This document shows, one piece after another, positions 3,466-37,810 of a stretch of DNA of 64,000 bases. Positions within the stretch are counted from its first letter, which is position 1. Each line of letters begins with the position of its first letter. The stretch lies in the NCBI GenBank assembly GCA_965243285.1, contig OZ251537.1:1161019-1225018 (forward strand). Reading direction: 5' to 3'. Source of the stretch: Candidatus Poriferihabitaceae bacterium (GTDB lineage Bacteria > Pseudomonadota > Gammaproteobacteria > Arenicellales > Poriferihabitantaceae). A model generated the notes under the pieces. It was not told the DNA's origin and did no database searches. It was given only the letters and a program-made list of their open reading frames with translations. Made by a program: the position numbers and the translations under genes.

Positions 3466-5010
3466 TCAATAAGCCGAATCCGCAAATGATGCTTTGCGCT
3501 TTGCCATAAATTCGAGCAATGATTCGTCGATGCCCGGGTCTAGCGGCGGCGGGGTGTATTCGGCCAACATTTTTTTCCATATTTTGTGGGCGCGTTGGGC
3601 GGCGTCTTGAGCGCCGTCGGCTTGCCATTGTTCGAAGCTGTTGTTGTCGGCGATGGCGGAGCGGTAGAAGGCGGTTTTGAAATTGTCTTGGGTGTGCTCG
3701 CAACCGAGGAAGTGGGCCCCGGGGCCGACTTCGCGGATAGCGCTTAATGCTTGGCCGTTTTCCGATAGGTCGAAGCCGGCGCTGAACACTTGCATCATGC
3801 CGAGTTGGTCGGCGTCCATGATGAGTTTTTCATAGGAGGAGACGAGGCCGCCTTCCAGCCAGCCGGCGGCGTGCAGCACAAAATTCACCCCGGCGGTGAC
3901 CGTGGGCAGCAAAGTGTTGGCGCTTTCGTACGCCGCTTGCGCGTCGGCGGCTTTGGAGCCGCATAACGAGCCGCCGCTGCGAAAGGGCACGCCGAGGCGT
4001 CGCGCCAAGGAGGCGGCGCCGTTTAGCACCAGCGCCGGCTCCGGCGTGCCGAAGGTGGGAGCGCCGGATTGCATGGAGATGGAGCTGGCGAAGGTGCCGA
4101 AAATCACCGGCGAACCGGGCCGCACCAACTGCGTGAAGGCCATGCCGGCCATGGCCTCGGCGAGGATTTGCGCCAGCGTGCCGGCGGTGGTGACCGGCGA
4201 CATGGCGCCGGCTAAAATAAACGGCGAGATGATGCTGGCTTGATTATGGCGGGCGTATACCTCCGATGCGCCGAGCATGGTTTCGTCGAAGGTCATGGGC
4301 GAATTGGCGTTGATTAAATTCACCAGCACGGTGTTTTCATCGACAAATTGATCGCCGAACAGCAGCTTGCACATGGCCACCGTATCTTCGGCGCGTTCGG
4401 GGTGGGTTACCGAGCCCATGAACGGTTTGTCGCTATATTTAATGTGGCTATACACCATGTCGAAATGGCGCTTGTTGACCGGCAAATCGGTGGGCTCGCA
4501 CACCGTGCCGCCGGAATGATGCAACGCCGGCAACAAATAGGCGAGTTTGACGATATTGCGAAAATCTTCGATGACGGCGTAGCGCCGCCCGCCCTCTAAA
4601 TCACGCACAAAGGGCGGGCCATAAACCGGCGCGAACACCGTGTGCTTGCCGCCTATCATCACGTTGCGCGCCGGGTTGCGGGCCTTTTGCTCGAACATTT
4701 TAGGCGCCGAATGTTGGATGATTTTGCGGCACATGCCGGTGGGGAAACGCACCCGCTCGCCGGTTATGTCGGCCCCGGCCTGGCGGAAGAGTTTGAGCGC
4801 CAGCGGATAGTGAAACTCGATGCCGATTTCCGACAAGATGGTGTCGGCATTTTTTTCGATGAGTGCCAGCCCCTCCTCGCCCAACAATTCATACTCGGGA
4901 ATGGCGCGGGTGATGTAGGCCGGCGCGGCGGCGGTGTCGTCGCCAGCCGCTTGGCGGGCGCGTCGGCCGCCGCGTTTGCGGCCGGCGGTGGGTTCGGTGG
5001 GTGTGGCCAT
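3466..5010 (-). CDS. MttB-superfamily (trimethylamine/glycine-betaine type) corrinoid methyltransferase, non-pyrrolysine
   Basis: Full-length resemblance to the MttB family (IEFHYP..ALKLFRQAGA.., DLPVNKRHFDMVYSHIKYSDKPFMGS). Uninterrupted frame with no in-frame amber codon. Start moved to MATPTEP (ATG at 5010). Confidence 0.85.
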   Translation of the reverse strand: MATPTEPTAGRKRGGRRARQAAGDDTAAAPAYITRAIPEYELLGEEGLALIEKNADTILSEIGIEFHYPLALKLFRQAGADITGERVRFPTGMCRKIIQHSAPKMFEQKARNPARNVMIGGKHTVFAPVYGPPFVRDLEGGRRYAVIEDFRNIVKLAYLLPALHHSGGTVCEPTDLPVNKRHFDMVYSHIKYSDKPFMGSVTHPERAEDTVAMCKLLFGDQFVDENTVLVNLINANSPMTFDETMLGASEVYARHNQASIISPFILAGAMSPVTTAGTLAQILAEAMAGMAFTQLVRPGSPVIFGTFASSISMQSGAPTFGTPEPALVLNGAASLARRLGVPFRSGGSLCGSKAADAQAAYESANTLLPTVTAGVNFVLHAAGWLEGGLVSSYEKLIMDADQLGMMQVFSAGFDLSENGQALSAIREVGPGAHFLGCEHTQDNFKTAFYRSAIADNNSFEQWQADGAQDAAQRAHKIWKKMLAEYTPPPLDPGIDESLLEFMAKRKASFADSAY

Positions 5011-5769
5011 GGCAGTTAATATGATGGGTGAAAACGAGGGCAATAATATAGCGAATAGCGAGCGGCTGTGGGTGGGGCGGGCGGATTTACGCGGGCGGGA
5101 TGGACGCGTCTCGGGCGATGGGCAGCGATAGCCTAAGGCCATGGGCGATGTGAAATGTCGCCTGCTGGCGCCGCGAATGTTGTTATGCGTTGTACCGCAC
5201 TGAGCGGCGACGACAATAAAAACACCAGTTGCGCCAGTGATTTCGGCATGAACGCGAAATCCGGCCACAACCATGACCTTGAGGTAATCCCATGAATATC
5301 CACGGCATTAGTTTTGGAGGAAAACAATCCGCAAGTGGTCGAGCGTATCGGCGCGTGCTATCCGGAGTTTTATACCCTCAATGACAAGTGTTTTTTTAGT
5401 CAGCAGCACGAATATTTCGTCTAAAGCGGCCAGCAGAGTGTGCCTCACTAACGATAAGAAATCAGGCGAGGTGGCCGGCGGGGTGTTTAAACTAAACGGC
5501 GGCCATGCAGGGTTTGCGGACCCGGGGTTATGGGAAGGGCTTGGCGATGATGGCAGACATGAGTCCGCGAAATAAAAATGTGTACCACATTCACACCCTG
5601 CAGATAACGCCTGATGATGGCGGCAGCGTACGGGATGAAAAAATTAGCTGCTATTCCCCTACAGGGTTTCGCTACAAACCCGGTCGATTAAGGATTTGTG
5701 TGGGATTTATCTATCTAAATCTGCACGGTGGGTTTGATTTTTCGCTTTGGCTTTTGCTTTTAACGTTTT

Positions 5770-5835
5770 ACTCCCCCCCTTGCTTCATCTGGGGGAGTCA
5801 AATCAGGCGGCTTTATCGCCTGATTTGGTGGGGGG
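5770..5835 (+). repeat. Two-hairpin core module (class I)
   Basis: ACTCCCCCCC-loop-GGGGGAGT, then CAAATCAGGCG-GCTTTAT-CGCCTGATTTG, then GTGGGGGG. Confidence 0.8.
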
Positions 5836-5954
5836 CTGTTGATGTTGGTCTTTTTGCTTTTGCCTTTAAATCTTTAACCCATCAGCCCAAATGATGGAAA
5901 AGTAAAAACCAACAGCTAAGTCAAAAGCCAAGTCAAAAGCGAAAAGTCAAAAGT

Positions 5955-6026
5955 CCCCCCACCAAATCAGCCCGAGCCTATCGGCTCGGTCAGATTTGAC
6001 TCCCCCCAGATGAAGCGGGGGGGAGT
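5955..6026 (-). repeat. Two-hairpin core module (class I variant with expanded second hairpin)
   Basis: Reverse complement of the module. The second hairpin keeps CAAATC/GATTTG but carries an inserted CCGAGCC-tatc-GGCTCGG stem. Confidence 0.7.
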
Positions 6027-6189
6027 AAAACAAAAGCCAAAGCCAAAGCCAAAATCAAAAACCAAAAATCAAAATCAAAAGCAAAATCCACCGTGCAGAT
6101 TTAGGACTATAAATCCCAAATCAAAAGCAAAGTCCTCAATCAAACAAGCGAATTTAGGTCTATACATCCCTACCCCATCCAACATCCCC

Positions 6190-6220
6190 AAAAAAAAGGG
6201 CGACTCTTTTGAATCGCCCT
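6190..6220 (-). terminator. Rho-independent terminator downstream of the adhesin gene
   Basis: On the minus strand: GGGCGA-ttcaaaagag-TCGCCC followed by T8 (A8 at 6190-6197 on plus), about 30 nt after the stop at 6252. Confidence 0.7.
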
Positions 6221-6251
6221 TAATGTTTGGGGGGGGGGGTAGCAGAATGCG

Positions 6252-9200
6252 TTAAAACTGCAGTTCGCCTTTTAGTAGGATGGTGTGGGCGGCGGCGGGG
6301 GTTTGGCGGCGTTCGCCTACTAGGTTTAAGGTGGCGTGCGAACCGGCATGCGAGGCTGAGCGCCAGTTTATGCCGAGGCGGTGGGCGGTGGTGCTGCCTA
6401 AGCGCATTTCACCATACGGGGTTAGCATGGCGGCGGTGGTTTTTAGCGCTAGGCCGTAGGCGAGGCGGGCTTCCATGCTGGCACGATAATCAGCACTGGC
6501 GGCGGTGGCCGCTGGCGGTAAATCGCGCTGCCAGAGTTGCGCCATGTCGCTTTGCGCCGGCCCGTAGGAGGGGCTCAACTCCAGCGAAAACCCTTGCCCA
6601 TCGGCACCGGCGGCCATGGCGATGCTGCCGCTCGCGCCCCACTCCGAATATTCGCCGGGCATGATGACGGCGTGGATGCGACCATGCGCGCTGTAACGCC
6701 CACCGCTGAAGCGCAAGCCAGCGCCCACTTGGGCCGCGGTCCCGGTTTCGCCATCGCCGCCGTTATAGCGCAGACCGAATTCCACGCTCGGCTCAATCGC
6801 GCCGCCGCCTAAGGCACGCCGACCGCTGGCTTCGAGGCCAAAACGGGCGCGGGTGGTGGCGGTTTGCATGGCGAGGGCGGCGTTGCCTTCCACTTCCAAC
6901 TCGCTGCGGGAGATTTCGCCGCGCAAGCGCAAGGTGGTGGCGGATTGTTGCCAGATTTCGCCGCTGCCGCCGAGCCCTAAGGCGCGCAGGGCTACATCCG
7001 ATTCGACTGCCGCGCCGCCGCTGGGGGTGATTTCCAAATCGCCCTGGCCGTAGCCGATGGTTGCCCATAAATCCACGCCGCCGACTTGCCAGCCGAGATA
7101 GGGATTTACGCTGGTCATGTCCATGCCATGCGCGCCGGCGGCGGCGGCGCGATAGTCGATGTCGCTTTGTAATTTAGAGACGGCGACGCCGAGCAGCAAA
7201 TCATGACGCACGCGGGTATCGACGCCAAGGTGGAAGCCGTATAACTCGCCGCCCCAATCCACGCCGCCGCTATCGCCGGACATTTCGCGGTATTCGCCGC
7301 TGCCCCATAACACCGTGCCGCCAGAGCCGCCGGCGGCGTAACCGGCGGTGGTACCAGCCACGCCATAGCCCCCATGGCCGCCATTTAGGGCGAGGCTGAA
7401 TGAGGTGCCAGCCAACATGGTTTTGGAGTCGCGTTGGTCGGCCGCCTTTGGCTGGCCATGGGCGGCCAGGGCGGCCGCTAGGCTGGTTTGGCCGCCGAGG
7501 GCGAAGCCGTTGCCGCTGCCATTGGCGCGCTCGATGCGGGTGGTGATGGCGGCGGTGGCGCTGGCGGTCATGGCGATGGCGACTTGCGGCAGCAGCACTT
7601 CATTGACGGCGGCCAGGGCGGCGCTGCCGGAGGTGACGGTGACGACGATATCTTCTTCGATGACGTTGGGGGCGGGAGCGGAATCGGTGACCCGGTAAGT
7701 CAGGGTGACGGCGCCTGGCTCGCTCGGCGTGCCGGATAAAATGCGGCTGGTTTCGTCAAAAGACAGCCCGGGCAACACGTTGTTTTCGGCGTTATCTATC
7801 GGCACATTATCCGGCGCTGGCCCCAGCAGGGCGTAGACCACAGCGCCGATGCCGCCGCTGACTTCCGGCAAGGTCGCATCGACCTCCTCATCCACCAAGA
7901 ATTGGTAGCTGAAAAGTGCATCGTCAGCAAACAATAGGTCGGCGACGAAGGGGAAGGCGTAGGCCACGGTCACCCCGCCGTCGGTGGTCGATGGGGTCGC
8001 CGGCGGGCGGGCGGTGTAGGTGAGCGTGGTGGTCACGGACGCCTCCGGCGTGCCGGACAAAACGCGCGTGGCTGGGTCAAAGGACAATCCGGACACCAGT
8101 TCTTCTACCTCGACGGTCAGAGTGGCATCGTCAGGACCCGCCCCGACCAAGGCGTAAACATAATTGCCATTGGGGTCGGCGCGCACCGCCGGCAGCGTTA
8201 TATCGACGCGGTCGCCGAGGGGGAATACAGCGGCAAAAATCTCGCGAAATCGGGCTGGCGAGACCACCTCGCCATCATCATCCACCAACACTTGGTCGAT
8301 GGTAAGGCTGAAAATCGCCGGCTCGGAGGCGTTGCCGTGATTGTCGGTGGCGTGGTAGGTGAGATCGATAGCGGCGGCGGCGGCGCTCGGCGTGCCGCTT
8401 AAAATACGGGCCTCGACGGCAGCGTTGAACGACAGCCCAGGCACGGCCGTCGACAAGGGTTGACCGTTGGTCCCGGTTAGTGAGTACACCACCGAATCGG
8501 TGCTGCTCATCGCCATCGGCAGGGTGAGGCGGGCGATAGCATCGCCTACCGAGTAAGTTTGGTCAGCCAACGGCAAGGCGGCGGCGGCGAAAATCGGGCC
8601 GGTGACGATGGCGGTGAATTCCACCTCGGTGAAATTGGCTGATGGACTCTCGGAATCGGTGGCGCGATAGATGAGCGGGATTTGGGCGATGACGCTGGGC
8701 GTGGCGGTGAGGATGCGGGTGGCGGGATCGAAATCCAGCCAAGCGGGCAAAGCCGGGGCGTTAGGGCTGCCGCCGAGGCCGAACAGGGCATGGAAGCGGG
8801 GCGCGATGCCGCCGCTGGCTTCGGGCAGGGTTTGGGTGCTGGTGGCGCCGGCCGGATAGGTGAATTCGGCGGCTAGGGCCGGCGGCGGGAAGGCCAGCCC
8901 GGGGATCACCGTCACCGCGAAGGTTTGCCGTGCCAAGCCGCCGTCGGCGTCGGTGGCGGTGTATACCAGCGAGGTGGTGGTGTTGTCGGCGACATAGGAC
9001 GGCGTGCCGCTCAAGGTACGCGCCATGGCGCCGCTGGCTATGGGGTTGAAACTCAGCCCGAGCGGCAAGCCGTTATTGGCGGCGGCCGGGTTTTGCCCGG
9101 TTAGGGTGTAGGTGAGGTCCCCGGGCACGGTGCTGTTCGCGGCCGACAAACCTAAGGCGCTGATGGGGCGGCCGGCGGTGTATTGCTGGGGCCCCGGCGT

Positions 9201-11798
9201 CGGGGCGGTGAACACCGGGCCGGCCACGGTGACCATAAACATGAGCGTGGTTGGGTTGCCGAAACTGTCGGTGGCGATGTAGGCGAGCGGTACGGCGGCG
9301 GCCGGGTTGCTCGGCGTGCCGCTTAAGGTGCGGGAATGGGCGGCGAACACCAGCCCGGGCGGCAAATTGGGGGTGGCCGCGGTGCCGCCGACGCCGACTA
9401 AGGCGTATGAGACGCCGGCGCCACGGGCTAAGGGCAGGATGAGCGGCGCGATGGCGGTGCCGGAAGCGAAGGTTTGGTCGCCCGGGGCGGCTTCGAACAC
9501 CGGGCTGGTGATGGCGACCTCAAACATGGCCTCGGCCGCATTGCCGTAACGGTCGGCGGCCGCATAGGTGAGGGTGACGGCGGCGGCGAGGACGCTGGGG
9601 CGACCGCCCAAAGCGCGGGAAGTGGGGTTGAAAATCAGCCCGGGCGGCAAATCATCGCTGGATTCATCGGCATCTTGGCCGCGCAAAGTGTAGGTGAGCG
9701 CGCCGAAGCCGCTCGCCGTCGGCAGCGCTTTGGCGGCGATGGCGAGGCCGATCGGATAGGCTTCATCGGCGATGGGCACATCATCGCCGCCGAACGCCGG
9801 GCCGCCGGTCACAGTGAACACAAAATTGGCGGTGGCGGTAGCGCCGGCGGTGCTGGTGGCGACATAAGTGAGCGTGGCAGCGCCGACCCTTTGCGCCGTG
9901 CCGGTCAGGGTGCGGACGGCGGCGGCGTTATCGAAACTCAACCCGGGCGGTAAATTGGCGCCATTGGCGGTGTCGACCACGCCATCCGCCGCCGTGCCGT
10001 ATAACGCATAGGAGATGATGGCGGAATCGTTGCCGCCATCCATGGCCACACTTAATGTGGCCTCCACCGCAGCACCGACTTGATGCGATATATCGGTCAC
10101 GGCGCCGTCAAAAGTCAGCCCGGTGATGACCACATCGAAACCATGGGTGATGGCATTGCCGAAGGGGTCGGTGGCGGTGTACACCCAAGCGTAGGTGCGG
10201 ATGCCGCTGATGGAGTCGGTGGGCGTGCCGCTCAAAACGCGGCTGGTTGGGTTGAAATTCAGCCCGCCGGGCAAAGCGCCGCCGCCATCGACTAACAAGG
10301 TGTAGCCATTGTTCTCGCCGCCGATGGCGGGCAGCGTCAGGGCCGCGATAGGCACGCCGGTGTTATAGGTTAAATCGGTGTCGGTGGGTAACGGCGGGTT
10401 ATCCTCCGGCGGCTCGGTGAGGAAAGCCGGGCCGGTGATGGTTACCGTGAAATTGCTGGCCACTGAGGCGGCGGCGGCATCGACTCCGGCATCGAACGCG
10501 CCGTACACCAAAACCACATCGCCGGTCATGCGTTGTGGGCGGCCGCTCAGCACGCGGGCGGTGGCATCGAACGCCAAGCCCGGGATGGCGGTGGCTAGGG
10601 GCGTATTGTTTTCCCCGGTTAGGGTGTAGGCCGGCGTGCCGGCGCCGTTGGCGGCACCTAAGGTTAGCGGCGTGATGAGGCCCGGGGCGGCGCCTTGCAC
10701 GGCGTAGGTTTGGTTATCCACGGCGGGCAACTGGCGGCGTACGGCGAGCGTGGCGGTGGCTTGGGCCGCGGCGCTGGTGCTGTTGGTTACGCCGTAGGTC
10801 AACACGCTGGCGGCTTGGGTGGTGGGAGCGCCGGACAGCGTGCGAGTGGCGGCCTCGAAACTCAAGCCGGGCGGCAAATTCGCATCGGCCGGGGTCGCAT
10901 CGGGGCCACGCAAGGTGTAGGTTTGCGTGCCCGTGGCGGCGCCGGTGGCGAGCGGTAAAACTTGGCTGTTTTGTTGCTCGATTCGCCAGTCGAGGTAGGT
11001 GGGCGTGGCCAGGCTTAATGTGCCGGCGTTGGCGTGCACGGTGATGCTGATGTTGTTGGTGCGCTGCGCACCTTCGGTAGTAACTTGATAGGTCGCTGTA
11101 TAGGCGCCGGTGCGCGTCGGCGTGCCGGATACCACCAGCGTGCTGGAATCAAAAGTCAAGCCGGGAATGGCCACATGCAGCGGCTCTTGGGTACGGCTGA
11201 AGCGATTGCTCGGGTCGAAGCCGGTGAATCGCACGGTGATATTGCCGCCGCCGGTGCGCCTCGGCATGGTCAAGGGGATGATAGGGAAACCGCGCACATA
11301 GTTGGTATGGGTGGGCTGCGGGAATGCGAATTCTTCGCGTTGGTCTATGGGGTCGAACCACGAGCGCTCGATGGTTAAGTTAAAATGGGCGGTGACGGAG
11401 ACGCCGGCGGCATTGGTGGCGGTGTAGGTCAGCCGGGTGCGGCCAAATGCGGTGGTGTCGCCATAAATCATGCGCGGCGAGACGGCGCGAAAAGTGACCC
11501 CGGCTGGCAGTTTGAGGTCGGTGGCGTCGGTGGCGGCGTCGTACCCCGGCCCGGTCAAGGTATAGGTCAGGGTGGCCGTATCGGCTTCGTTATTCGATGT
11601 GGCGCGGCTCAAATTACGCCCACTGGTGATGCCGTAATAGTAGAAAACATTGGTTTGCGATAACTGCAAAGTGCCGGCGGCGGCAGCGGCGCCGGTATTG
11701 GCGGCGGAATTCGGAATCGGCTGTTGGGCCGCGGCCGAGGCCGCAAACCCTAATGCCGCGAGGGCGAAAATTAAGAAAAACGCGACGGTTTTTGACAT
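6252..11798 (-). CDS. Giant type Va autotransporter adhesin with cadherin/Ig-like (LPxGLxF..R.LSGTP) repeat passenger
   Basis: Signal peptide MSKTVAFFLIFALAALGFAASAAAQQ after a GGAG. Roughly 17 repeats of the ...YTLTG...LPPGLSF....R.LSGTP....LTY.A.D..GN... unit. C-terminal ~280 aa resembles an autotransporter beta-barrel (WGSGEYREMSG...GFHLGVD...) and ends in ...ELQF. Confidence 0.85.
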   Translation of the reverse strand: MSKTVAFFLIFALAALGFAASAAAQQPIPNSAANTGAAAAAGTLQLSQTNVFYYYGITSGRNLSRATSNNEADTATLTYTLTGPGYDAATDATDLKLPAGVTFRAVSPRMIYGDTTAFGRTRLTYTATNAAGVSVTAHFNLTIERSWFDPIDQREEFAFPQPTHTNYVRGFPIIPLTMPRRTGGGNITVRFTGFDPSNRFSRTQEPLHVAIPGLTFDSSTLVVSGTPTRTGAYTATYQVTTEGAQRTNNISITVHANAGTLSLATPTYLDWRIEQQNSQVLPLATGAATGTQTYTLRGPDATPADANLPPGLSFEAATRTLSGAPTTQAASVLTYGVTNSTSAAAQATATLAVRRQLPAVDNQTYAVQGAAPGLITPLTLGAANGAGTPAYTLTGENNTPLATAIPGLAFDATARVLSGRPQRMTGDVVLVYGAFDAGVDAAAASVASNFTVTITGPAFLTEPPEDNPPLPTDTDLTYNTGVPIAALTLPAIGGENNGYTLLVDGGGALPGGLNFNPTSRVLSGTPTDSISGIRTYAWVYTATDPFGNAITHGFDVVITGLTFDGAVTDISHQVGAAVEATLSVAMDGGNDSAIISYALYGTAADGVVDTANGANLPPGLSFDNAAAVRTLTGTAQRVGAATLTYVATSTAGATATANFVFTVTGGPAFGGDDVPIADEAYPIGLAIAAKALPTASGFGALTYTLRGQDADESSDDLPPGLIFNPTSRALGGRPSVLAAAVTLTYAAADRYGNAAEAMFEVAITSPVFEAAPGDQTFASGTAIAPLILPLARGAGVSYALVGVGGTAATPNLPPGLVFAAHSRTLSGTPSNPAAAVPLAYIATDSFGNPTTLMFMVTVAGPVFTAPTPGPQQYTAGRPISALGLSAANSTVPGDLTYTLTGQNPAAANNGLPLGLSFNPIASGAMARTLSGTPSYVADNTTTSLVYTATDADGGLARQTFAVTVIPGLAFPPPALAAEFTYPAGATSTQTLPEASGGIAPRFHALFGLGGSPNAPALPAWLDFDPATRILTATPSVIAQIPLIYRATDSESPSANFTEVEFTAIVTGPIFAAAALPLADQTYSVGDAIARLTLPMAMSSTDSVVYSLTGTNGQPLSTAVPGLSFNAAVEARILSGTPSAAAAAIDLTYHATDNHGNASEPAIFSLTIDQVLVDDDGEVVSPARFREIFAAVFPLGDRVDITLPAVRADPNGNYVYALVGAGPDDATLTVEVEELVSGLSFDPATRVLSGTPEASVTTTLTYTARPPATPSTTDGGVTVAYAFPFVADLLFADDALFSYQFLVDEEVDATLPEVSGGIGAVVYALLGPAPDNVPIDNAENNVLPGLSFDETSRILSGTPSEPGAVTLTYRVTDSAPAPNVIEEDIVVTVTSGSAALAAVNEVLLPQVAIAMTASATAAITTRIERANGSGNGFALGGQTSLAAALAAHGQPKAADQRDSKTMLAGTSFSLALNGGHGGYGVAGTTAGYAAGGSGGTVLWGSGEYREMSGDSGGVDWGGELYGFHLGVDTRVRHDLLLGVAVSKLQSDIDYRAAAAGAHGMDMTSVNPYLGWQVGGVDLWATIGYGQGDLEITPSGGAAVESDVALRALGLGGSGEIWQQSATTLRLRGEISRSELEVEGNAALAMQTATTRARFGLEASGRRALGGGAIEPSVEFGLRYNGGDGETGTAAQVGAGLRFSGGRYSAHGRIHAVIMPGEYSEWGASGSIAMAAGADGQGFSLELSPSYGPAQSDMAQLWQRDLPPAATAASADYRASMEARLAYGLALKTTAAMLTPYGEMRLGSTTAHRLGINWRSASHAGSHATLNLVGERRQTPAAAHTILLKGELQF

Positions 11799-12025
11799 GG
11801 GGGAGGGCTCCGTATGAGGTGAAAGAATGTCGGTGCTCGGTCGAGCGGAATAGGGCGGCGGCGTTGAAAAATCGGCCGTAAACGCTACTAGAAAATGGGC
11901 TGGAATGTAAGCTGAAATATAGGCTGAAAAAATGACGCTTGCCCAGGTTGGTTTACTAATATGGTGGGGTTTATAGTCATAAAATCCCATTATTAGGGTG
12001 CTATTTTGAGGTATTGATTTTGATC

Positions 12026-12102
<77 letters not shown>

Positions 12103-12113
12103 ATTAATGCTTT

Positions 12114-12178
12114 GCTCCACCCTATCTTTTTAGGGGGGAGCCAAAACTGGCGGCTTCATTGCCAGTTTTGGTGGGGGG
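12114..12178 (+). repeat. Two-hairpin core module (class II)
   Basis: GCTCCACC-loop-GGGGGGAGC, then CAAAACTGGCG-GCTTCAT-TGCCAGTTTTG (one G:T pair), then GTGGGGGG. Confidence 0.8.
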
Positions 12179-12400
12179 TGCGTTTGATTTTGATTTTGAT
12201 TTTCGCCTTTGATTTTGATTTTCGCCTTTGATTTTGATTTTCGCCTTTGATTTTGATTTTTCGCTTTTCGCTTTTCGCTTTTCGCTTTTGACTTGGCTGT
12301 TGGCTTGATTTTGACTTGGCTGTTGGCTTTTACTTTTCCCCTAATTTGGGCTGATGGGTTGAAGATTTAAAGGCAACAGCAAAAAGACCAACCTCAACAG

Positions 12401-12465
12401 CCCCCCACCAAATCAGGCGATAAAGCCGCCTGATTTGACTCCCCCAGAAAAAGCTAAGGTGGAGT
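12401..12465 (-). repeat. Two-hairpin core module (class I)
   Basis: Reverse complement reads ACTCCACC..GGGGGAGT CAAATCAGGCG GCTTTAT CGCCTGATTTG GTGGGGGG. Confidence 0.8.
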
Positions 12466-12685
12466 AAAACGTTAAAAGCCAAAAGCCAAAAGCCAAAAGC
12501 CAAAGCGAAAAGCCAAAGCGAAAAGCCAAAGCGAAAAGCCAAAAGCCAAAGCGAAAAGCCAAAGCCAAAGCCAAAGCGAAAGCCAAAGCCAAAGCAAAAA
12601 TCAAACCCAACCTCCCTAAATCAGCCGCTGACCTCAAAAAACGCCAACCGAACTGCAGATTTAGGACTATAAACCCCTAAAATAT

Positions 12686-13028
12686 TTTGGCGGCACCGCG
12701 TCGCTGGCGCCGAACTTTTTCTACACCGCGGATTTGGGCGTCCACTGGCGCTACGGCCTCGGCGTCGCTTCGCCATACGGCTTGAGCGCCGACTATCGCG
12801 CCGCTTGGGTGGGGCGCTATCGCGCCATCAAATCCGCGCTGAAAAGCGTGGAAATCAACCCCGCCGTGGCGGACCAGCGCGGCGCTCAGCCTCGGCGTCG
12901 GCATCACTTGGCTGCACGCTAACGCCGAACTCAGCCACGCGCTGTACATTCCCGTGTCACAAACCGACTCCGTGGACGCCAGCGCCACCGCCATCTTCGC
13001 CCTGCGCCTGCGCCTCGACCTCGATTAG
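12686..13028 (+). pseudogene. Remnant of a FadL/OmpP1-family outer-membrane transporter (5'-truncated, frameshifted, internally deleted)
   Basis: ...NFFYTADLGVHWRYGLGVASPYGLSADYRAAWVGRYRAIKSALKSVEINPAVA... is FadL-like. The frame then shifts to ...LSLGVGITWLHANAEL.... Only ~110 codons remain, and the fragment begins exactly at the edge of repeat element B. Confidence 0.5.
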
Positions 13029-13199
13029 GCGAGTGCGTTGCCCTCGGCGGCTAAGGTGGGGTATCATCGGCGGCGCATTTTTAAGCGCTGGCGGGCGGTG
13101 GTCACGGCGCGTTTATAGCAAAGTTCAAGGGTATGAGAGCGGTCGGTTTGAATCGACCGGTGGCGGCTTTTTGGTTTCACAACACATCGGGGGCCTGCG

Positions 13200-14102
<903 letters not shown>

Positions 14103-17230: not shown

Positions 17231-18502
17231 ATGGCTGAAATTCGCAACTACACCATGAATTTCGGGCCGCAACACCCGGCCGCGCACGGCGTATTGCGCG
17301 TGATCATGGAGATGGACGGCGAGGTGATCGAACGCTGCGACCCGCACATCGGCCTGCTGCACCGCGCCACCGAAAAACTCGCCGAATCCAAACCCTATAA
17401 CCAAAATATCGGTTATATGGATCGCCTCGATTATGTTTCCATGATGTGCAACGAGCACGCCTATGTGCTCGCCATCGAAAAACTACTCGGCATCACGGCG
17501 CCGGTGCGGGCGCAATATATCCGCGTGATGTTCGATGAGATCACGCGCATTCTCAACCACTGCTTGTGGCTGGGCGCGCATGCCTTGGATGTGGGCGCGA
17601 TGACGGTGTTTCTGTATTGCTTTCGCGAGCGCGAAGATTTGATGGACTGCTATGAGGCGGTCAGCGGGGCGCGCATGCACGCCACCTATTACCGCCCCGG
17701 CGGCGTCTATCGCGACTTGCCCGACGCCATGCCGAAGTACGACATCACCCGCCGCCATGACGCCGATGAAACCCGCGCCCGCAACGCAGACCGCGACGGC
17801 TCGCTGCTGGATTTTATCGAGGCCTTCACGGCGCGCTTCCCCGGCTATGTGGATGAATACGAAACCCTGTTGAGCGACAACCGCATCTGGAAGCAGCGCA
17901 CCGTGGATATCGGCGTGGTCAGCGCGCAGCGCGCCAAGGCGTTAGGATTTACCGGCCCCATGCTGCGCGGCTGCGGGGTGGAGTGGGATTTGCGCCGCAA
18001 GCAGCCGTACGCGGTGTATGACGACCTCGATTTCGCCATCCCCGTCGGCGCCAATGGCGATTGCTATGACCGCTACTTGGTGCGCGTCGAAGAGATGCGC
18101 CAATCCAACCGCATCATCCGCCAGTGCGTCGATTGGCTGCGCGCCGACGCCCAAAAAGCCGGCGGCCCCGGGCCGGTGATGACCGCCGACGGCAAACTGG
18201 CGCCGCCCTCGCGCGAGCGCATGAAGGGCGACATGGAGGCGCTGATTCACCACTTCAAATTATTCACCGAGGGCTACTGCATCCCGGCCGGCGAAGCCTA
18301 TGCCGCCATCGAACACCCCAAGGGCGAATTCGGCATCTACCTGGTCTCAGACGGCGCCAACAAACCCTATCGTTGCAAAATTCGCGCCCCCGGCTTTGCC
18401 CACCTGGCGGCTTTGAACGAAATGTCCCAAGGCCATATGTTAGCCGACATGGTCGCCATCATCGGCTCGCAAGACATCGTCTTCGGGGAGATCGATCGGT
18501 GA
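17231..18502 (+). CDS. nuoD: NADH-quinone oxidoreductase subunit D
   Basis: [14 protein letters not shown]...[14 protein letters not shown]...ends [10 protein letters not shown]. Confidence 0.95.
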
Positions 18503-19533
18503 CTGCGAAAGCCATGGCGGTAGACGATGCGCCAGCCCGGGCAGCTCGGGCAACTCGGGCCGCGCAAGCAGCGCACTCCGCGCCGGCCTTGGCCCATTCG
18601 CATACCTCCATCATCGCGCGCGCTACGGCTAAACCGAATTTACCGTGCACAAACCGCGTGCAATGCGCCGATGTTTTGCAATCCTTGCGTGAAATAAAAA
18701 CCGACGCCAGGTTTGATTTAGTCATCGCCGACCCGCCGTATAACATCGGCAAAGATTTTGGCAATGCTAGCGACCGCCAAGAATTGTCGGCGTATTTGAA
18801 ATGGAGTGATGACTGGATTGGTGAGTGTTTGCGCTTGGTGAAGCCATGCGCGCCGGTGTATATCTATGGTTTTGCCGAGGTGTTGGCGCACATTGCGGTG
18901 CGCTACGCAATCGAAAATCAACGCTGGTTGGCGTGGCATTACACCAATAAAACGGTGCCGACCTCAAAATTTTGGCAACGCAGTCACGAGTCAATCTTGT
19001 GTTTGTGGCGCGGCAAACGCCCCACCCTTAATGTGGATGCAGTGCGCGAGGATTACACCGCTGGCTTTCTAAATGGTCCCGCCGGCAAGCCGCGCAAAGA
19101 TTCCAATTGCCGCTATGGCCGTAAGGGGAAAAAGACGGTGTATAACGCGCATCCCAACGGCGCCTTGCCGCGCGATGTCATCAAAGTACCGGCCTTGGCC
19201 GGCCGGGCCGGCTATGCCGAGCGGTGGTTTTATGGTAAGACCTGCCAGACGCTATGTTCGCCGAAGGAAAACAGCGCGCATGAGGCCCATGAAATCGTAC
19301 AACACCCCACCCAAAAACCAGCCGCGCTAACGCAAAAACTCATCGCCGCCGCTGATGCGCAAAGCCCCGCCGTGCTAATCCCCTTCGCCGGCTCGGGTTC
19401 GGAGTGCGTGGTAGCGCAAAAAATGGGCGCGGATTTTCATGCGGTGGAGGTCAATCCTGACTATGCGTTATTGGCGAATAGTTGGTTGGATGCGGGCCGC
19501 CCATCAATGTTGTTCCCGGTGAAAGGACACTGA
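18499..19533 (+). CDS. Beta-class (N6A/N4C) DNA methyltransferase, cassette 1
   Basis: Motif IV DPPYN, HPTQKP, and motif I FAGSGSE (order IV then I, so beta class). Candidate starts are GTG 18499 (GTGA overlap with the nuoD stop) or ATG 18514. The ORF-track extension back to 18124 lies inside nuoD and is rejected. Confidence 0.85.
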
Positions 19534-19534
19534 T

Positions 19535-21730
19535 ATGTCTATAACCGAAAGCGAATCTGTTGTTGCAATTGATATTCAGTTAACCGCTTGCGGGTGGCAA
19601 TTAGACCCTCGCCAGCTTGATCGCAACGTTTTCAAACAAAGGGCGCGCACTGCCGAGCAAAATAAAGCACTCGGTGGCAAGCACCCAGACTATGTGCTTT
19701 ATGCTTATAACGAATCAAATAAACCTACGCTGGTTATTGAAGCCAAAAAACCCGGCAAATCAATGTCGGAAGCGCTGAAGCAGGGGATTAATCGATACGC
19801 TAAGAAAATTAATGCGCCTATTGTAATCGCATCAGATGGGTGGCGTGTCAAAACTTGGCATATAGGGCGTAGGGAACCGTTATTTATTGATGGCCGTGAA
19901 GTGGATGAATTGTTCAGCCCTGAGATGACAAAGGAATTTGTCAAAAATAATAATTTCAGCAGCCTCTCCGAGGATGTGGCATTAGATCAATATGCACTAA
20001 TCGCCAAATTCAAAAAAGCCAATAGCATATTAAAAACCGAGGGACTTTCCGCTGGTATAGAAAGATTCTCGGAATTTGCAAATTTGATGTTCTTAAAACT
20101 CCTAATTGAGGGGGGGGCGGATATTGCGGGATTTTCATGGGCGGATATTGAGGCTAAACAAGGTGTAACTCTGACAAATGCGATAAAAACCATGTTCAGG
20201 GAATTGCGCCGGGAATATTGCAACTTGTTTGAACAGACGAAGGTGCAAAACCCCAAAAATATGGAGCGATTAATTGAACTGCTTTCCTTCCGCCTATCCT
20301 CAGTTAAGCACGACATCAAAGGCCTTGCTTTTGAGCATTTTATACATTCATACACAAGAGGAACAAAAAATGATTTGGGGCAGTATTTCACCCCGCGTCA
20401 CATTGTCAGGATGATGGTGCATTTTTTGAGACCTCAAATCGGTGAAAAAATCTACGACCCCTTCTGTGGCACCGGGGGGATGTTGATTGAATGTTTTCGA
20501 TATATTAGTCAACATATAGAAAGTGATGACGATAAGAAAATACTTAAAGAAAAGACCGTGTTCGGCCGGGACAATTCAAGCGTGGCGAGAATCGCCATGA
20601 TGAACATGATTATGTTCGGCGACGGGCATTCCAATATCACTCAAGGCAACTCGTACGCCATGCTTGGCGAAGCCAAACGCAAATACGATATTGTTATCAC
20701 CAACATTCCATTCTCACAAGAGACAGATTGTTACGAAGGTTACCCGGTGATGCCGTCTGGCGTTAAAAATGGCGACAGCATCGGGGTTCAACATAGTCTT
20801 GAAAGTTTAAAGGATACAAAATCCGCGCGAGCCGCTATCATTGTTCCCATCGGCTTTCTCTATAAGGAACAACTGGCGCAAGAGCGCAAACACATTTTTA
20901 AACACTGGACAATAGAAAGGATTGTGGAATTATCCCCAAAATGTTTCCAGCCCTATACAGAACAACAAACAGCGGCGCTGGTGATTAGCCGGAAAAAACC
21001 CATTGCCGTCTACCCCTACTACCGCGTGAAAAACGATGGATATAGCCAAGATGGATACCGCGTCGCCTTGCCCGGGGAGAACGATATAGACAAAGCAATG
21101 GATGATATTGGCGCAACAGAAAAGCCTATTGCAAACGACTATCCCTCGCCATTTAAAACCATCAATTTATTGATTCGGAAAAACGAATTCAGGCTTGGCG
21201 ACATCGCAAAGATCACAAGCGGGGCGGGGAATATATCTCCGAAAACCAAAATCATCGATGTGATTGGCGGTGTCCACTCAATTCTAATGGTTGCCGATCT
21301 CGCCAAAGCCCACATCGATTACTGCCTGGATGAAAGTATCTACAAACTAACAGAGCGCGCAGTCAGAGATAAAAAACCGTATCTATTTAAGGAAAATACG
21401 ACCATCATTCCAGTGACCGGCAAGGCATCGCTAAAAAATCACCGAGCGTTATTGGGGGCTCCCGCATACGCCACCAGCACCCTTGCCGGTATTGAGGTGG
21501 ATGAAAACAGCATGCATCCTTTCTGCATTTTTAATTTCTTTCTCAACTTTGATATTGAACGAGTGACTTATGACTTGGGCTACCCTGGCATAAGTGTCCG
21601 CATGCTTATGGAAATTGGCATCACCAATTACACTGACAAACAAACGAAAGACATCATCCATCGCGTGGGTTATGTCGTACAATTAAGCAAGGAATTAAAA
21701 ATCAAACGCAGAGAAATAGAATTAGGTTAA
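19535..21730 (+). CDS. Single-chain restriction-modification-specificity enzyme (Type IIG-like: PD-ExK nuclease + HsdM-like N6A methylase + HsdS-like TRD)
   Basis: N-terminal HPDYVLY...LVIEAKK (D..ExK). Middle GQYFTPRHIV, DPFCGTGGML (motif I) and ITNIPFS (NPPF variant). C-terminal FRLGDIAKITSG... TRD. Starts 1 nt after the methylase stop. AT-rich. Confidence 0.8.
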   Translation: MSITESESVVAIDIQLTACGWQLDPRQLDRNVFKQRARTAEQNKALGGKHPDYVLYAYNESNKPTLVIEAKKPGKSMSEALKQGINRYAKKINAPIVIASDGWRVKTWHIGRREPLFIDGREVDELFSPEMTKEFVKNNNFSSLSEDVALDQYALIAKFKKANSILKTEGLSAGIERFSEFANLMFLKLLIEGGADIAGFSWADIEAKQGVTLTNAIKTMFRELRREYCNLFEQTKVQNPKNMERLIELLSFRLSSVKHDIKGLAFEHFIHSYTRGTKNDLGQYFTPRHIVRMMVHFLRPQIGEKIYDPFCGTGGMLIECFRYISQHIESDDDKKILKEKTVFGRDNSSVARIAMMNMIMFGDGHSNITQGNSYAMLGEAKRKYDIVITNIPFSQETDCYEGYPVMPSGVKNGDSIGVQHSLESLKDTKSARAAIIVPIGFLYKEQLAQERKHIFKHWTIERIVELSPKCFQPYTEQQTAALVISRKKPIAVYPYYRVKNDGYSQDGYRVALPGENDIDKAMDDIGATEKPIANDYPSPFKTINLLIRKNEFRLGDIAKITSGAGNISPKTKIIDVIGGVHSILMVADLAKAHIDYCLDESIYKLTERAVRDKKPYLFKENTTIIPVTGKASLKNHRALLGAPAYATSTLAGIEVDENSMHPFCIFNFFLNFDIERVTYDLGYPGISVRMLMEIGITNYTDKQTKDIIHRVGYVVQLSKELKIKRREIELG

Positions 21731-28161: not shown

Positions 28162-28245
28162 GAGGCTGATTTTGAGGCCGATTTTGGTGCCGATTTTGGT
28201 GCCGATTTTGATGATGGGTTTGAGGCCGATTTTGGTAATTCTGTT
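28162..28245. repeat. Seven tandem 12-nt units (consensus GRKGCCGATTTT) in the nuoH-nuoI spacer
   Basis: gaggctgatttt gaggccgatttt ggtgccgatttt ggtgccgatttt gatgatgggttt gaggccgatttt ggtaattctgtt. Confidence 0.9.
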
Positions 28246-28273: not shown

Positions 28274-28765
28274 ATGTACATAGACTTCAAACAACTCTAC
28301 AAAACCTTCACCCTCAAGGAATTGCGGCGCGGCATGTGGCTCACCGGGCGGCGGCTATTCAGCCGCAAAATCACCCTCATGTACCCACTGGAAAAAACGC
28401 CGAAATCGCCGCGCTTCCGCGGCCTGCACGCCTTGCGCCGCTACGCCAACGGCGAGGAACGCTGCATCGCGTGCAAATTGTGCGAGGCGGTCTGCCCGGC
28501 GCTCGCCATCACCATCGACTCCGAAGAACGCGCCGACGGCACGCGCCGCACCACGCGCTACGACATCGACTTGTTCAAGTGTGTGTATTGCGGTTTCTGC
28601 GAGGAAGCCTGCCCGGTGGATGCCATCGTCATGACCGACATCCACGAATTCCACATGGATGAAAATCATCAACGCATCATCGACAAATCGCGCCTGCTCG
28701 CCATCGGCGATAAATACGAACCGCAAATCGCCGCGGCGCGCCAGCAAGACGCGCCTTATCGCTGA
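28274..28765 (+). CDS. nuoI: NADH-quinone oxidoreductase subunit I
   Basis: Two 4Fe-4S motifs: [12 protein letters not shown] and [12 protein letters not shown]. Confidence 0.95.
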
Positions 28766-29784
28766 TGGCGATCGCCACGGCCGCCTGCGCGTCGCGCCCG
28801 ACTCAAAGCAAAGCGAGAGCGCCGCGCAACCGCACCTTGCATTGCGACGCAGCGGAGGCCGCAGCACTCGGCGCGCGCCTCACTACGCTGACGGCGCCGG
28901 TCGGCAGCCATGCCATCGACGCCATCGACGGCAAAATTATTCATCAAGATATTTTCGCCGCGGCGCAGTATTTGCCGGCCGCGTTCGTCGATTTGTTGAT
29001 TATCGACCCGCCGTATAACTTAACCAAAAATTACCACGGGCAACGGTTTTTGGAGAAAGAAAAACCCGAGTATGCCGCGTGGTTCGAAAGCATGCTGCGC
29101 TCGGTGATGCACACCCTAAAGCCCAACGCGTCGTTGTATGTGTGCGCCGATTGGCGAACATCCATTATCATCGCGCCGCTGCTGGAAAAATATTTCCAAG
29201 TAAAAAATCGCATCACCTGGGAACGCGAAAAAGGCCGCGGCGCCAAACTCAACTGGAAAAATAATTTAGAAGACATTTGGTTTTGCGTAACCGGCAACGC
29301 GTATTTTTTCAATGTGGATGCGGTTAAACTCAAAAGAAAAGTGCTGGCTCCTTATCGCCACAACGGCTTGCCCAAAGATTGGCGCATCGAGCGCGATGGC
29401 AACTATCGCTTGACCCATCCGTCCAATATTTGGACCGACATCTCCATTCCGTTCTGGTCGATGCCGGAAAACACCGACCACCCAACGCAAAAGCCGGAGA
29501 AATTGTTAGCTAAATTAATCTTAGCCAGCAGCCGGCCGGGAGATATGGTGTTCGACCCCTTCGCCGGCAGCGGCAGCACCGCCGTGACCGCGAAAAAATT
29601 ACGCCGCCGCTTTGTGTGCGTGGAACTCAACCGCGAATATTGCTGCTGGGGACAGAAGCGTTTGCAACAAACCTCGCCGGATGACCCCATACAAGGCTAC
29701 GCCAATAATGTGTTTTTGGAGAGGAACACGGCGCACAACCTCAAACATAAAAGCGCCGCATCCACGCAAAAAAAATTGTTATGA
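28765..29784 (+). CDS. Beta-class (N6A/N4C) DNA methyltransferase, cassette 2
   Basis: IIDPPYN, HPTQKP, DPFAGSGST. The only in-frame ATG shares its A with the nuoI TGA (TGATG). Confidence 0.85.
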   Translation: MAIATAACASRPTQSKARAPRNRTLHCDAAEAAALGARLTTLTAPVGSHAIDAIDGKIIHQDIFAAAQYLPAAFVDLLIIDPPYNLTKNYHGQRFLEKEKPEYAAWFESMLRSVMHTLKPNASLYVCADWRTSIIIAPLLEKYFQVKNRITWEREKGRGAKLNWKNNLEDIWFCVTGNAYFFNVDAVKLKRKVLAPYRHNGLPKDWRIERDGNYRLTHPSNIWTDISIPFWSMPENTDHPTQKPEKLLAKLILASSRPGDMVFDPFAGSGSTAVTAKKLRRRFVCVELNREYCCWGQKRLQQTSPDDPIQGYANNVFLERNTAHNLKHKSAASTQKKLL

Positions 29785-30449
29785 AATCCTCTTTTTTCTA
29801 CGGCGCTCGCAGCGCCGAAGCCGCGGCAAAAATACAGGCCGCCAGCAACACTGAACCAACTTTTCTTTCCGCCATAACTGCCCACAGCCCGCGCGCGGTG
29901 GGCGATGCTACGCAATCGCTGGTGGAGAAAAAATTTGAGTCCATCATCGGCGATTGGTGTGCTGAATATTCATCATCATTCGCGCGCCGAGCAATGGCCG
30001 ATTTGGGTTTGAGGATAAGCCAAGATTTTTATTGCATAGTTGATGTGAAAACCCATCGACTTGACACTACATTCAACATGCCTGCGCTCGTTTCGGTCAA
30101 GCGATTAGCGCGTTTTTATGAAGATGACATGAATGTATTTTCTATTCTCATGATCAAGTACGAAATAATTGATAACCGCATGCAAGTTAATGAAGTTATT
30201 TTTCTGCCTATAGAGTTTTTGGATTGGAGTTGTCTCACAGTAGGGGCGCTTGGGTGGGGGCAAATACAAATCGCCAATTCCAACAACATTGTTATTCGTC
30301 ACGGTCAATCTAGAAAAACCTGGATGCTTTCTTTGTGTGATGTATTGCAAGAATTTTACCCAAAAGAAATTTTGAAAATCACCGAGCGAGTAAATGAATT
30401 CAACAAAGTTAAATCGTATTGGCATAACAAGCCCGACCTTTGGACTTGA
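29781..30449 (+). CDS. Putative Type II restriction endonuclease, cassette 2
   Basis: ATGA overlap with the methylase stop. Possible PD-(D/E)xK core (...ADL...CIVDVKTH...). AT-rich. No other recognisable family. Confidence 0.55.
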   Translation: MKSSFFYGARSAEAAAKIQAASNTEPTFLSAITAHSPRAVGDATQSLVEKKFESIIGDWCAEYSSSFARRAMADLGLRISQDFYCIVDVKTHRLDTTFNMPALVSVKRLARFYEDDMNVFSILMIKYEIIDNRMQVNEVIFLPIEFLDWSCLTVGALGWGQIQIANSNNIVIRHGQSRKTWMLSLCDVLQEFYPKEILKITERVNEFNKVKSYWHNKPDLWT

Positions 30450-31820: not shown

Positions 31821-32126
31821 ATGATTCCTCTGTCTTATTATCTCGCCCTCGGCGCGGCGCTGTTCGCCATCAGCGTGGTGGGGATTTTTCTCAACCGCAA
31901 AAATGTGGTCATCTTATTGATGTCGCTGGAGTTGCTGCTGTTAGCGGTGAATATGAATTTCGTCGCCTTCTCGCATTTTTTAGCCGACCCGGCCGGGCAA
32001 ATATTTGTGTTTTTTATCCTAACCGTGGCCGCCGCCGAAGCCGCCATCGGCCTCGCCATCCTCATCGTGCTATTCCGCAGCCGCCGCACCATCAATGTGG
32101 AAGAACTCGATTCGCTTAAAGGGTAA
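31821..32126 (+). CDS. nuoK: NADH-quinone oxidoreductase subunit K
   Basis: ...[18 protein letters not shown]...[23 protein letters not shown]... Confidence 0.95.
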
Positions 32127-32128
32127 TG
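32089..32128 (+). repeat. Direct repeat copy 1 (nuoK 3' end, att-like)
   Basis: CCATCAATGTGGAAGAACTCGATTCG is identical (26/26) to 37293-37318. The similarity continues through the stop codon with 2 mismatches and a 1-nt indel. Confidence 0.9.
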
Positions 32129-32136
32129 GAGTGGTC

Positions 32137-33465: not shown

Positions 33466-33513
33466 TTTTTATCCTGATCACCCCACCCAACGACCCACAT
33501 CACAACTTAAATC

Positions 33514-35397: not shown

Positions 35398-35401
35398 GAC
35401 C

Positions 35402-37268: not shown

Positions 37269-37292
37269 CCTCGTCGCCCTATTCCCAGCCGC

Positions 37293-37331
37293 CCATCAAT
37301 GTGGAAGAACTCGATTCGTTGAAGGGTGATG
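37293..37331 (+). repeat. Direct repeat copy 2 (displaced nuoK 3' end)
   Basis: Encodes ..INVEELDS.. as nuoK does. A 1-nt deletion puts the homologous stop (TGA versus TAA) out of frame. Confidence 0.9.
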
Positions 37332-37350
37332 TTGATTTTCTCTCCGCTCC

Positions 37351-37419
37351 GCTTTCGCTTTTCGCTGCTACGCTTCACCCTCCCCGCTTAACCTGGATAA
37401 ATTAAGTCAAAACTGACTT
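37351..37419 (+). repeat. Decayed copy of the class II two-hairpin module
   Basis: cgcttttcgctgctacgcttcaccctccccgctta...aagtcaaaactgactt aligns with 47853-47910 of copy C (cgcttttcgctgttacgctttactccccccgcttta...gagtcaaaactggcgg). Confidence 0.55.
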
Positions 37420-37714
37420 ATTCCGACCAGCGCGCTTAAACCTCGCATGGATTTCCCTAAATCCTTAGTCCATCACCCCAAAACAAACCCCCCATAAATC
37501 CCCCATAAACCCACGCAAACACGCCATTCCACCTAAAATTCCCCTCAATCACCCAAAATTTCCCTCCCAACCCTCATAAAAGTGCATAATCCGCCGCCGC
37601 AAACTCCCGAGCCACCACGGACGCCGCCAGCGGCAAATTCGGCTGGGTGATAATGATGTATCAAAACACCCGCAACGAAAAAGGGCCAGAATCATCCCCG
37701 CTGATGATGTCTAT

Positions 37715-37773
37715 TGTCAATTAATCGACATCTTTATCGCCGTCCGTTGACAAGCAAACGGGGAGTGTATAAT
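37715..37773 (+). promoter_or_regulatory. Sigma70-like promoter with upstream near-palindrome for R-M cassette 3
   Basis: TTGACA (37747-37752) and TATAAT (37768-37773) with a 15-nt spacer, 37 nt before ATG 37811. The near-palindrome TGTCAATT/AATCGACA at 37715-37730 shares the TTGACA half-site. Confidence 0.45.
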
Positions 37774-37810
37774 ATTAAAACTTCGCCTAAACAAACAACC
37801 AATTCCCACA

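Follow-up and report, generated by a model that had tools for sequence, protein, structure and literature searches.

Palindromic intergenic elements with microsatellite arms form a candidate family of foldback-type miniature transposons in a sponge-associated gammaproteobacterium

Four intergenic, non-coding palindromic elements of 416–712 bp, here named E1–E4, are reported from a 64-kb window (the whole stretch of DNA that was analysed, 64,000 nucleotides of contig OZ251537.1) of the genome of a Candidatus Poriferihabitaceae bacterium. The repeat family that they form is genuine, with a relatedness well above chance, and each copy is a discrete gene-free unit bounded by a 25-nt terminal inverted repeat, termed T. 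On balance, the family is probably a lineage-specific, non-autonomous MITE (miniature inverted-repeat transposable element) of the foldback type, mobilized in trans by a transposase encoded outside the window. It is unusual in its foldback architecture, in having arms made of microsatellites, in the conservation of its local hairpins and in a size of up to 712 bp.

The relatedness of the copies, which the original prediction had claimed for four loci, was borne out by blastn, which aligned E2 with E4 at 81% identity over 443 nt (E = 1e-124), E1 with E4 at 86.6% over 254 nt (E = 1.5e-83) and E1 with E2 at 86% over 235 nt, and by the counts of a 19-nt core, GGGGGAGTCAAAWCWGGCG, with seven matches against 0.09 expected. 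All four copies sit between genes, their GC content is 0.42–0.44 with flanks of 0.58–0.62, and a Pfam scan of the open reading frames (ORFs) overlapping the elements gave no significant family, in keeping with the claim that they are non-coding. The ends of the elements were set by the limits of inter-copy homology together with the GGRNTTTAT termini, and the alignment of the copies gave discrete ends at the T termini. Several positions of the original prediction are thereby revised: E1 ends at 6117, the sequence at 6148–6170 being an extra outer T-like motif that is probably the end of an older copy; E2 begins at 11966 and not at 12004; and the element placed at 52164–52772 is a merger of the inner copy E4 with the left end of a decayed 'shell' around it, the right end of which had been taken for a solitary fragment at 52927–52945. 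The solitary motif placed at 49333–49352 was recovered as a T-like motif with slightly wider limits, and a fifth, degenerate fragment in the 37.3-kb region had been missed; downstream of it, at ~37494–37510, lie T-like GGGATTTAT/GGGTTTAT repeats. Of the four copies only E2 and E4 have the hexamer CTGCAG, assigned to the shared termini, and then in the right end alone; E1 has GTGCAG/CTGCAC and E3 has CCGCAG.

Every copy follows the shared plan T–(X)–M–H–C–M–H'(−)–M–(X)–T(−). T is a hairpin-forming repeat with the consensus TTGGGATTTATATACCTAAATCTGCA, that is GGGATTTAT-N4-CTAAATCTGCA, and a hairpin stem GATTTA/TAAATC; E1, E3 and E4 have it at either end and E2 at its right end, the left end of E2 being diverged. 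Among 12 aligned T variants CTAAA is invariant and GG nearly invariant, the stem in E3 is preserved via a G–C to C–G change, and the right T(−) of E3 carries an 11-nt insertion in its loop. The optional module X, 45 nt long, contributes a further inverted copy of CTGATTTAG. M denotes the T/G-rich hexamer and heptamer arrays of the 5' half and their complements in the 3' half, and the strand asymmetry that had been predicted for the arms is confirmed by a T+G fraction of 0.56–0.73 in the 5' half versus 0.23–0.31 in the 3' half. Tandem Repeats Finder reports arrays of period 6–7 (also 12–13 and 19) in both arms, with units and lengths that vary between arms and between copies, for example (TTGCTG)12.8 at 100% identity and AAAAGCC × 18; at an orthologous position, between GGGTTTGA and TTTTAACG, the array measures ~25 nt in E1 and E4 versus ~137 nt in E2. 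The core H, of 78 nt, consists of two neighbouring hairpins and, after them, GTGGGGGG; a covariance model of H finds seven strong copies (71–98 bits) and a decayed one. The asymmetric centre C (~78 nt) confers orientation on the element; E1, E3 and E4 lie in one orientation and E2 in the opposite one. The arms are complementary overall but imperfectly so (70–87%), and single-strand folds of the four copies were far more stable than those of shuffles (z = −16.6, −8.3, −9.0 and −3.7), so that the nested-palindromic plan with variable microsatellites, as first described, is upheld by the arrays and by foldback folding. T, X and H have the half-site YAAATCNG/CNGATTTR in common, and 19 of its 46 occurrences in the window fall in the elements, which make up 3.7% of the sequence. 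An apparent inversion of an inner segment between E2 (12056–12497) and E4 was withdrawn after comparison of the modules, by which E2 is a whole element reversed; the matching right ends of E2 and E4 are both 'long' ends, consisting of T and X.

When the seven H copies were aligned, the two-hairpin structure was found to be 97.6% paired, with four pairs changed on both sides (A–U/G–C, U–A/A–U, A–U/U–A and G–C/C–G), and the covariation score was reached by none of 500 shuffles, slid controls giving 33–56% pairing; the seven copies are related, so that about three or four events are represented. Single-sided changes comprise two G–U pairs against three non-pairs, that is, no G–U excess. E2 and E4 each bear two different H subtypes, CAAATCAGGCG and CAAAACTGGCG, and therefore each local hairpin is well paired (11/11, or 10/11 with one G–U), whereas arm-to-arm pairing is mismatched at the positions that distinguish the subtypes. 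The covariation points to constraint on the local hairpins or else to hairpin-templated repair. By eye, the hairpin of module C is kept inconsistently from copy to copy.

Table 1. Positions of the elements, their parts and related features within the window
Feature	Position	Strand	Description
E1	5702–6117	+	416 bp, complete
E1, left half			T 5702–5726; short T/G-rich arm; H(a) 5761–5839; centre C ~5839–5917
E1, right half			A/C-rich arrays; H(c) on minus strand 5951–6035; arrays 6027–6090; T(−) 6093–6117
Outer T-like motif	6148–6170	−	GGGATGTATAGACCTAAATTCGC; just right of E1
E2	11966–12677	−	712 bp, complete, reversed versus E1 and E4
E2, first part			Diverged T'/X' end 11966–12013; (TTGCTG)12.8 12026–12102; H(b) 12105–12182; arrays 12183–12329
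E2, middle			C(−) ~12318–12400; H(a)(−) 12397–12474
E2, last part			(AAAGCC/AAAAGCC)n 12474–12610; X 12611–12652; T(−) 12653–12677
Degenerate fragment	37353–37389	+	33 of 37 bases equal to the array/H junction of E3
Sister 146-bp MITE	45003–45148		23-nt terminal inverted repeat GGGAATTATAT..TTGTTGACCC
E3	47794–48209	+	416 bp, single H
E3, left part			T 47794–47818, compensated stem GCATTTA/TAAATGC; arrays; H 47862–47940; arrays 47939–47998
E3, right part			(CCTTCCG)3.7 48006–48031; A/C-rich arrays 48065–48167; T(−) 48175–48209
Solitary T-like motif	49330–49354	−	GGGTTATGCCTAAATCTTATCCC on minus strand
Decayed shell around E4	52152–52950	+	Older copy with its own T-like ends
Shell, left and inner parts			T-like 52152–52176; degenerate hairpin region 52184–52258; H(c)-like 52766–52854 (16.5 bits)
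Shell, right T-like motifs			52881–52899; 52926–52950
Putative target-site duplication of E4, left	52259–52266		ATTCTTAT
E4	52267–52772	+	506 bp, inner copy
E4, left part			T 52267–52291; (TTTGGCT)3.4; H(a) 52321–52399; C ~52396–52475; arrays 52469–52569
E4, right part			H(b)(−) 52567–52644; (AACAGC)8.3 52644–52693; X 52694–52747; T(−) 52748–52772
Putative target-site duplication of E4, right	52773–52780		ATTCTCAT; 7 of 8 bases equal to the left copy

That the family is a mobile one is suggested by the way in which the copies are bounded. Homology between copies stops exactly at the T termini, and the copies are 81–87% identical despite unrelated flanks, the one exception being the 3' ends of the giant genes next to E1 and E4, which are paralogous. 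E4 is nested in the decayed shell, which has T-like ends of its own and an H-like module, and is bordered by the putative target-site duplication listed in Table 1. The sister element of 146 bp is enclosed by a perfect 8-bp target duplication, TTTTTAAT, at 44995–45002 and 45149–45156, and its termini, GGGAATTATATA, equal those of E4, GGGATTTATATA, at 11 of 12 bases. It sits in the nuoN–ddl spacer, which is T-rich, repetitive and 330 nt long here, and is missing from the same spacer (15–40 nt) of four relatives.

The larger elements are likewise confined, as far as the sequences compared go, to this lineage. NuoM places the host among sponge-associated gammaproteobacteria, with 79% identity to Candidatus Spongiihabitans, and in four relatives (NuoM 82–84% identical; 86 kb in total) neither H nor T nor any blast similarity was found. 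A scan of GTDB genomes, the representatives of which do not include the host genome, with the H core gave ten single matches in unrelated phyla, which were taken as chance; in viral contigs a 16-base T pattern gave 45 single chance matches and a gapped H pattern none; and in metagenome contigs a 20-base T pattern gave six single matches, none with H, arrays or a second end. These pattern scans needed exact matches and may miss diverged relatives. No match was obtained by blastn of E1 and E4 against plasmids and phages, and no Rfam family reached its gathering score on the elements, a single tRNA being all that passes in the window; in E-value mode only sub-threshold matches to plant microRNA precursors appeared for E1 and E2 (50.9 versus 230 and 26.7 versus 144 bits). 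To this extent the original prediction stands: no catalogued family in these collections matches the elements.

If the family is indeed a foldback-type MITE, a DDE-type transposase encoded elsewhere in the 2.8-Mb genome would recognize the GG...TTAT termini, and the same enzyme may in addition make use of the YAAATCNG/CNGATTTR half-sites that are reiterated in T, X and H. The element would be cut out and pasted into AT-rich intergenic DNA with duplication of 8 bp of the target, the T/G-rich arm arrays would be secondary, having grown by replication slippage from short proto-repeats in a slippage-prone genome, and the local hairpins might be kept as protein-binding or cruciform features for mobilization. 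Alternatively, the transcribed element might act as an RNA hairpin that ends or stabilizes neighbouring transcripts.

Several points weigh against this reading. No flanking duplication was seen around E1, E2 or E3, which leaves E4 alone, at 7/8, and neither a transposase nor an insertion sequence (IS) with matching ends is present within the window. The compensatory changes in H are not demanded by a simple cut-and-paste model, the placement of E1 and E4 by paralogous giant genes could reflect ancestry or function and not insertion, and two of the four copies (506 and 712 bp) are longer than the usual MITE. The mobility of the family is inferred and not observed, as are array-length variation, an effect on neighbouring genes and the transposase itself.

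The arm arrays have counterparts elsewhere in the window. Short-period tandem repeats amount to 23.5 bases per kilobase here versus 1.9–7.1 in the relatives, and over half of the tandem-repeat bases of the window fall in the elements; the others include repeats in the nuoH–nuoI, nuoM–nuoN and nuoN–ddl spacers and in the ddl gene. Since repeats also occupy operon spacers and ddl, slippage is a property of the genome, with the element arms as one substrate among others, and microsatellite stuffing is not special to the elements in this window. The genes nuoM and nuoN overlap (ATGA) in all four relatives and are kept apart here by a 285-nt insert with (ATATCG)n at 43158–43441. Both reading frames are intact, and on either side of the insert stands a diverged copy of the original junction, the left one being CAAATTGCCGTAA and the right one CAAAACTGCCATGA. 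An in-frame 12-nt array, CGGCCAATAACT × 8.4, lies at 46001–46100 inside ddl (D-Ala-D-Ala ligase) and is not found in the relatives, where alignments break at 46002–46103 and the protein has 385–393 residues versus 414 here. The nuoH–nuoI spacer (28162–28236) holds T/G-rich 12-nt repeats, GAGGCCGATTTT and GGTGCCGATTTT, and is ~30 nt long in relative L011.

One alternative, which we consider unlikely, is that the large elements are mosaics of the kind formed by repetitive extragenic palindromic (REP) sequences, REPINs and bacterial interspersed mosaic elements (BIMEs), in which the T and H hairpins would be the true units, recognized on single-stranded DNA by an HUH transposase (RAYT or IS200–IS605 type), and the elements would be clusters of inverted units and linkers. 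T (25 nt) and both H hairpins are indeed within the size range of REPs and occur in inverted pairs, as in REPINs, a concept reportedly due to Bertels and Rainey in 2011; the pairing and two-sided changes of H and the compensated T stem of E3 also speak for it, and a mosaic with an optional X and solo T-like motifs recalls BIMEs. However, entire units of 400–700 bp have been copied with common ends, and within the window T-like motifs are restricted to the loci of the elements, position 49330 and the 37.5-kb fragment, and H to the elements themselves. HUH transposition of the IS200/IS605 kind is not expected to give an 8-bp flanking duplication such as that seen here, and no Y1/RAYT transposase was found within the window. 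The main REP superfamilies are defined by a GTAG or CGTC tetranucleotide at the end of a palindromic unit of 20–40 bp (PMC3733652), and neither tag, nor its complement, stands at a conserved position in the T or H consensus.

Another alternative, with a similarly low probability in our judgement, is that the elements are immobile functional palindromes, cis-acting structures at the DNA or RNA level that serve neighbouring genes as 3' hairpins or bidirectional terminators or tune giant adhesin-like genes as hypermutable 'contingency' spacers; their spread would be due to segmental duplication and their similarity to gene conversion. The genomic context lends it some appeal: three of the four copies flank giant He_PIG/autotransporter-like genes, and the genes next to E1 and E4 are paralogous, with the element downstream of each in the same position and orientation. 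E1 adjoins, on the far side, the intrinsic terminator (6196–6221) of the gene at 6252–11990 (minus strand), which encodes a 1912-aa He_PIG/autotransporter-like product; the shell of E4 starts 16 nt past the stop of the second giant gene (52966–63909); and E2 has one end ~20 nt upstream of a promoter-like site (11945–11916) for the gene at 6252–11990 and lies ~170 nt upstream of its likely true start, with a signal peptide near 11798. The perfect (TTGCTG)12.8 tract upstream of this adhesin-like gene calls to mind the 7-bp repeats that lie upstream of hmw genes in Haemophilus, and the local hairpins are conserved. On the other hand, the elements (86.6%) are far more alike than the giant-gene 3' ends beside E1 and E4 (68.5% in DNA, 44% in protein), and the stretch from stop codon to element is unrelated between the two loci. 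E3 and the 37.3-kb fragment are not beside giant adhesin-like genes, promoter and terminator scans found no enrichment of such sites in the elements, and the terminator of the gene at 6252–11990 is a canonical one of its own, outside E1. The nesting of E4 with its flanking duplication and the complete lack of the elements in the relatives likewise speak against this view. It is doubtful, in addition, that the elements are an undescribed bacterial foldback family with microsatellite arms, in which H and the half-sites are recognition modules and copies have been co-opted as 5' or 3' regulatory cassettes of the giant adhesin-like autotransporter genes.

Structured non-coding RNA genes, encoding long hairpin RNAs with conserved sub-hairpins, are a very unlikely explanation. 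The folds are very stable and H has compensatory changes, but G–U pairs are not in excess among the single-sided changes of H, the Rfam matches stay far below threshold and concern plant microRNA precursors only, no promoter or terminator signal was found, and the arm length and array unit differ so greatly between copies that they are hard to fit to one RNA fold.

Still less probable is a role as recombinase substrates, in which T (GATTTA-N6-TAAATC), a short palindrome with a 6-nt spacer, would be the core site of the tyrosine recombinase encoded at 49559–50545 and the elements would be invertible or integrative. This gene lies 1.3–1.7 kb from E3 and E4, beside the solitary T-like motif; its product, however, scores far below the XerC/XerD and integron-integrase cut-offs, and the gene stands in a decayed island next to a truncated PLD/SNF2 neighbour. 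T has arms of no more than 6 bp, the distance to E1 and E2 exceeds 37 kb, the seeming inversion between E2 and E4 vanishes when E2 is read as a whole reversed element, and the 8-bp duplications point to transposition. Finally, although palindromes and microsatellites are error-prone in assembly and the window appears to come from a metagenome-assembled contig of 2.79 Mb, an assembly artefact of low-complexity or palindromic DNA can practically be dismissed, as false foldbacks would be near-perfect and usually at contig ends, whereas the four copies have imperfect arms (70–87% complementary), a consistent modular plan, distinct array units and unrelated intact flanks, with decayed older copies also present.

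Further features of the window may be recorded. Both giant He_PIG Ig-domain proteins (6252–11990 and 52966–64000, minus strand) have autotransporter-like C-termini, and the second gene consists in part of ~20 tandem copies of a 321–324-nt unit, five or six of them ~91% identical (56510–58449). In the decayed island (49559–51958) the tyrosine recombinase is of the phage type, an AT-rich spacer holds a 33-nt tandem repeat (50841–50903), and a PLD/SNF2 protein of the anti-phage type, which has ~900 aa in its full-length homologues, is represented by its N-terminal 340 aa. Disruption by E2 of a fadL-like gene at 12688–13236 was considered and dropped, the ORF having neither a Pfam family nor a homologue; a possible gene remnant is the GC-rich stretch of ~670 nt (12679–13350) that separates E2 from the likely tpiA start and in which the ORFs have no homologues (no match for 12688–13236). 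Islands at 18124–21730, 28765–30449 and 32095–39477 break up the nuo (complex I) operon; they encode DNA methylases, a methylase like those of type I restriction–modification systems and unknown proteins, and one of these islands (an N6_N4 methylase and an unknown ORF after nuoI) is common to the relatives. A sub-threshold Rfam match to PYLIS_3, a pyrrolysine insertion element (3867–3965, minus strand; 32.4 versus 38 bits), falls inside an MttB-family methyltransferase gene (3466–5274), with a RACo-type corrinoid activase gene nearby (684–2822).

Among known systems, prokaryotic MITEs, such as Correia, ERIC, Coxiella QMITE1/2 and Chunjie, are characterized by terminal inverted repeats of ~4–30 bp, flanking direct repeats, the lack of a gene, a length typically below 500 bp, AT-richness, an intergenic site, a stem-loop and a cognate autonomous IS with the same ends that mobilizes them in trans (PMC10969869). 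The elements share the inverted ends, lack of genes, AT-richness, intergenic site and hairpin fold, whereas flanking duplication is present only in part, at 7/8 in E4, 8/8 in the sister element and not in E1–E3. The view that they are not simple MITEs was hence too strong with regard to discrete 25-nt terminal inverted repeats in AT-rich, intergenic, non-coding, hairpin-forming DNA, one copy of which also has an 8-bp flanking duplication. As in other prokaryotic MITEs, the stem-loops are very stable, the copies vary in size and decay, and the direct repeat flanks the youngest-looking copy; unlike in these, the foldback extends over nearly the whole element, the arms are variable hexamer and heptamer arrays, internal double hairpins carry compensatory changes, the length reaches 712 bp and no parent IS is present in the window. 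The combination of nested copies with tandem repeats or microsatellites in a prokaryotic MITE appears to be undescribed, since all three features go unmentioned in a 2024 review of MITEs in prokaryotes (PMC10969869).

With the REPs, REPINs and BIMEs of gammaproteobacteria the elements share small hairpins in inverted pairs, mosaics with linkers, compensatory stem changes and a lineage-specific sequence; they differ in lacking a GTAG/CGTC tag, in the absence from the window of a RAYT and of a swarm of solitary units, in being copied as wholes of 400–700 bp and in the 8-bp flanking duplication. Pneumococcal BOX elements are modular, with conserved ends, a variable number of 45-bp internal modules and stable predicted hairpins, and lie near genes. 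Conserved end modules, variable internal repeats, predicted stable hairpins and proximity to genes are found here as well, but the repeats are 6–7-nt microsatellites, there is no sequence similarity, the host belongs to another clade and BOX is without the double-hairpin core. The nearest analogue by architecture is provided by the Foldback transposons, a resemblance and not a membership: the Drosophila FB and Galileo elements are eukaryotic, kilobase-sized and tied to particular transposase superfamilies, whereas the present elements are of 0.4–0.7 kb, in a bacterial host and with no transposase in the window. Common to both are inverted arms of short tandem sub-repeats, the number of which varies between copies and arms, and a short asymmetric centre, and many Foldback copies are non-autonomous. 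Elements of this kind could be hotspots of rearrangement and assembly error in long-read symbiont genomes, their array lengths could serve as strain markers, and their position by giant adhesin-like genes would suggest a link to variable expression of host-interaction proteins. If the foldback-type reading is true, the family would be a clean example of a slippage-prone symbiont genome inflating mobile DNA, and bacterial miniature transposons could adopt the foldback form of eukaryotes, with long inverted arms of variable short repeats.

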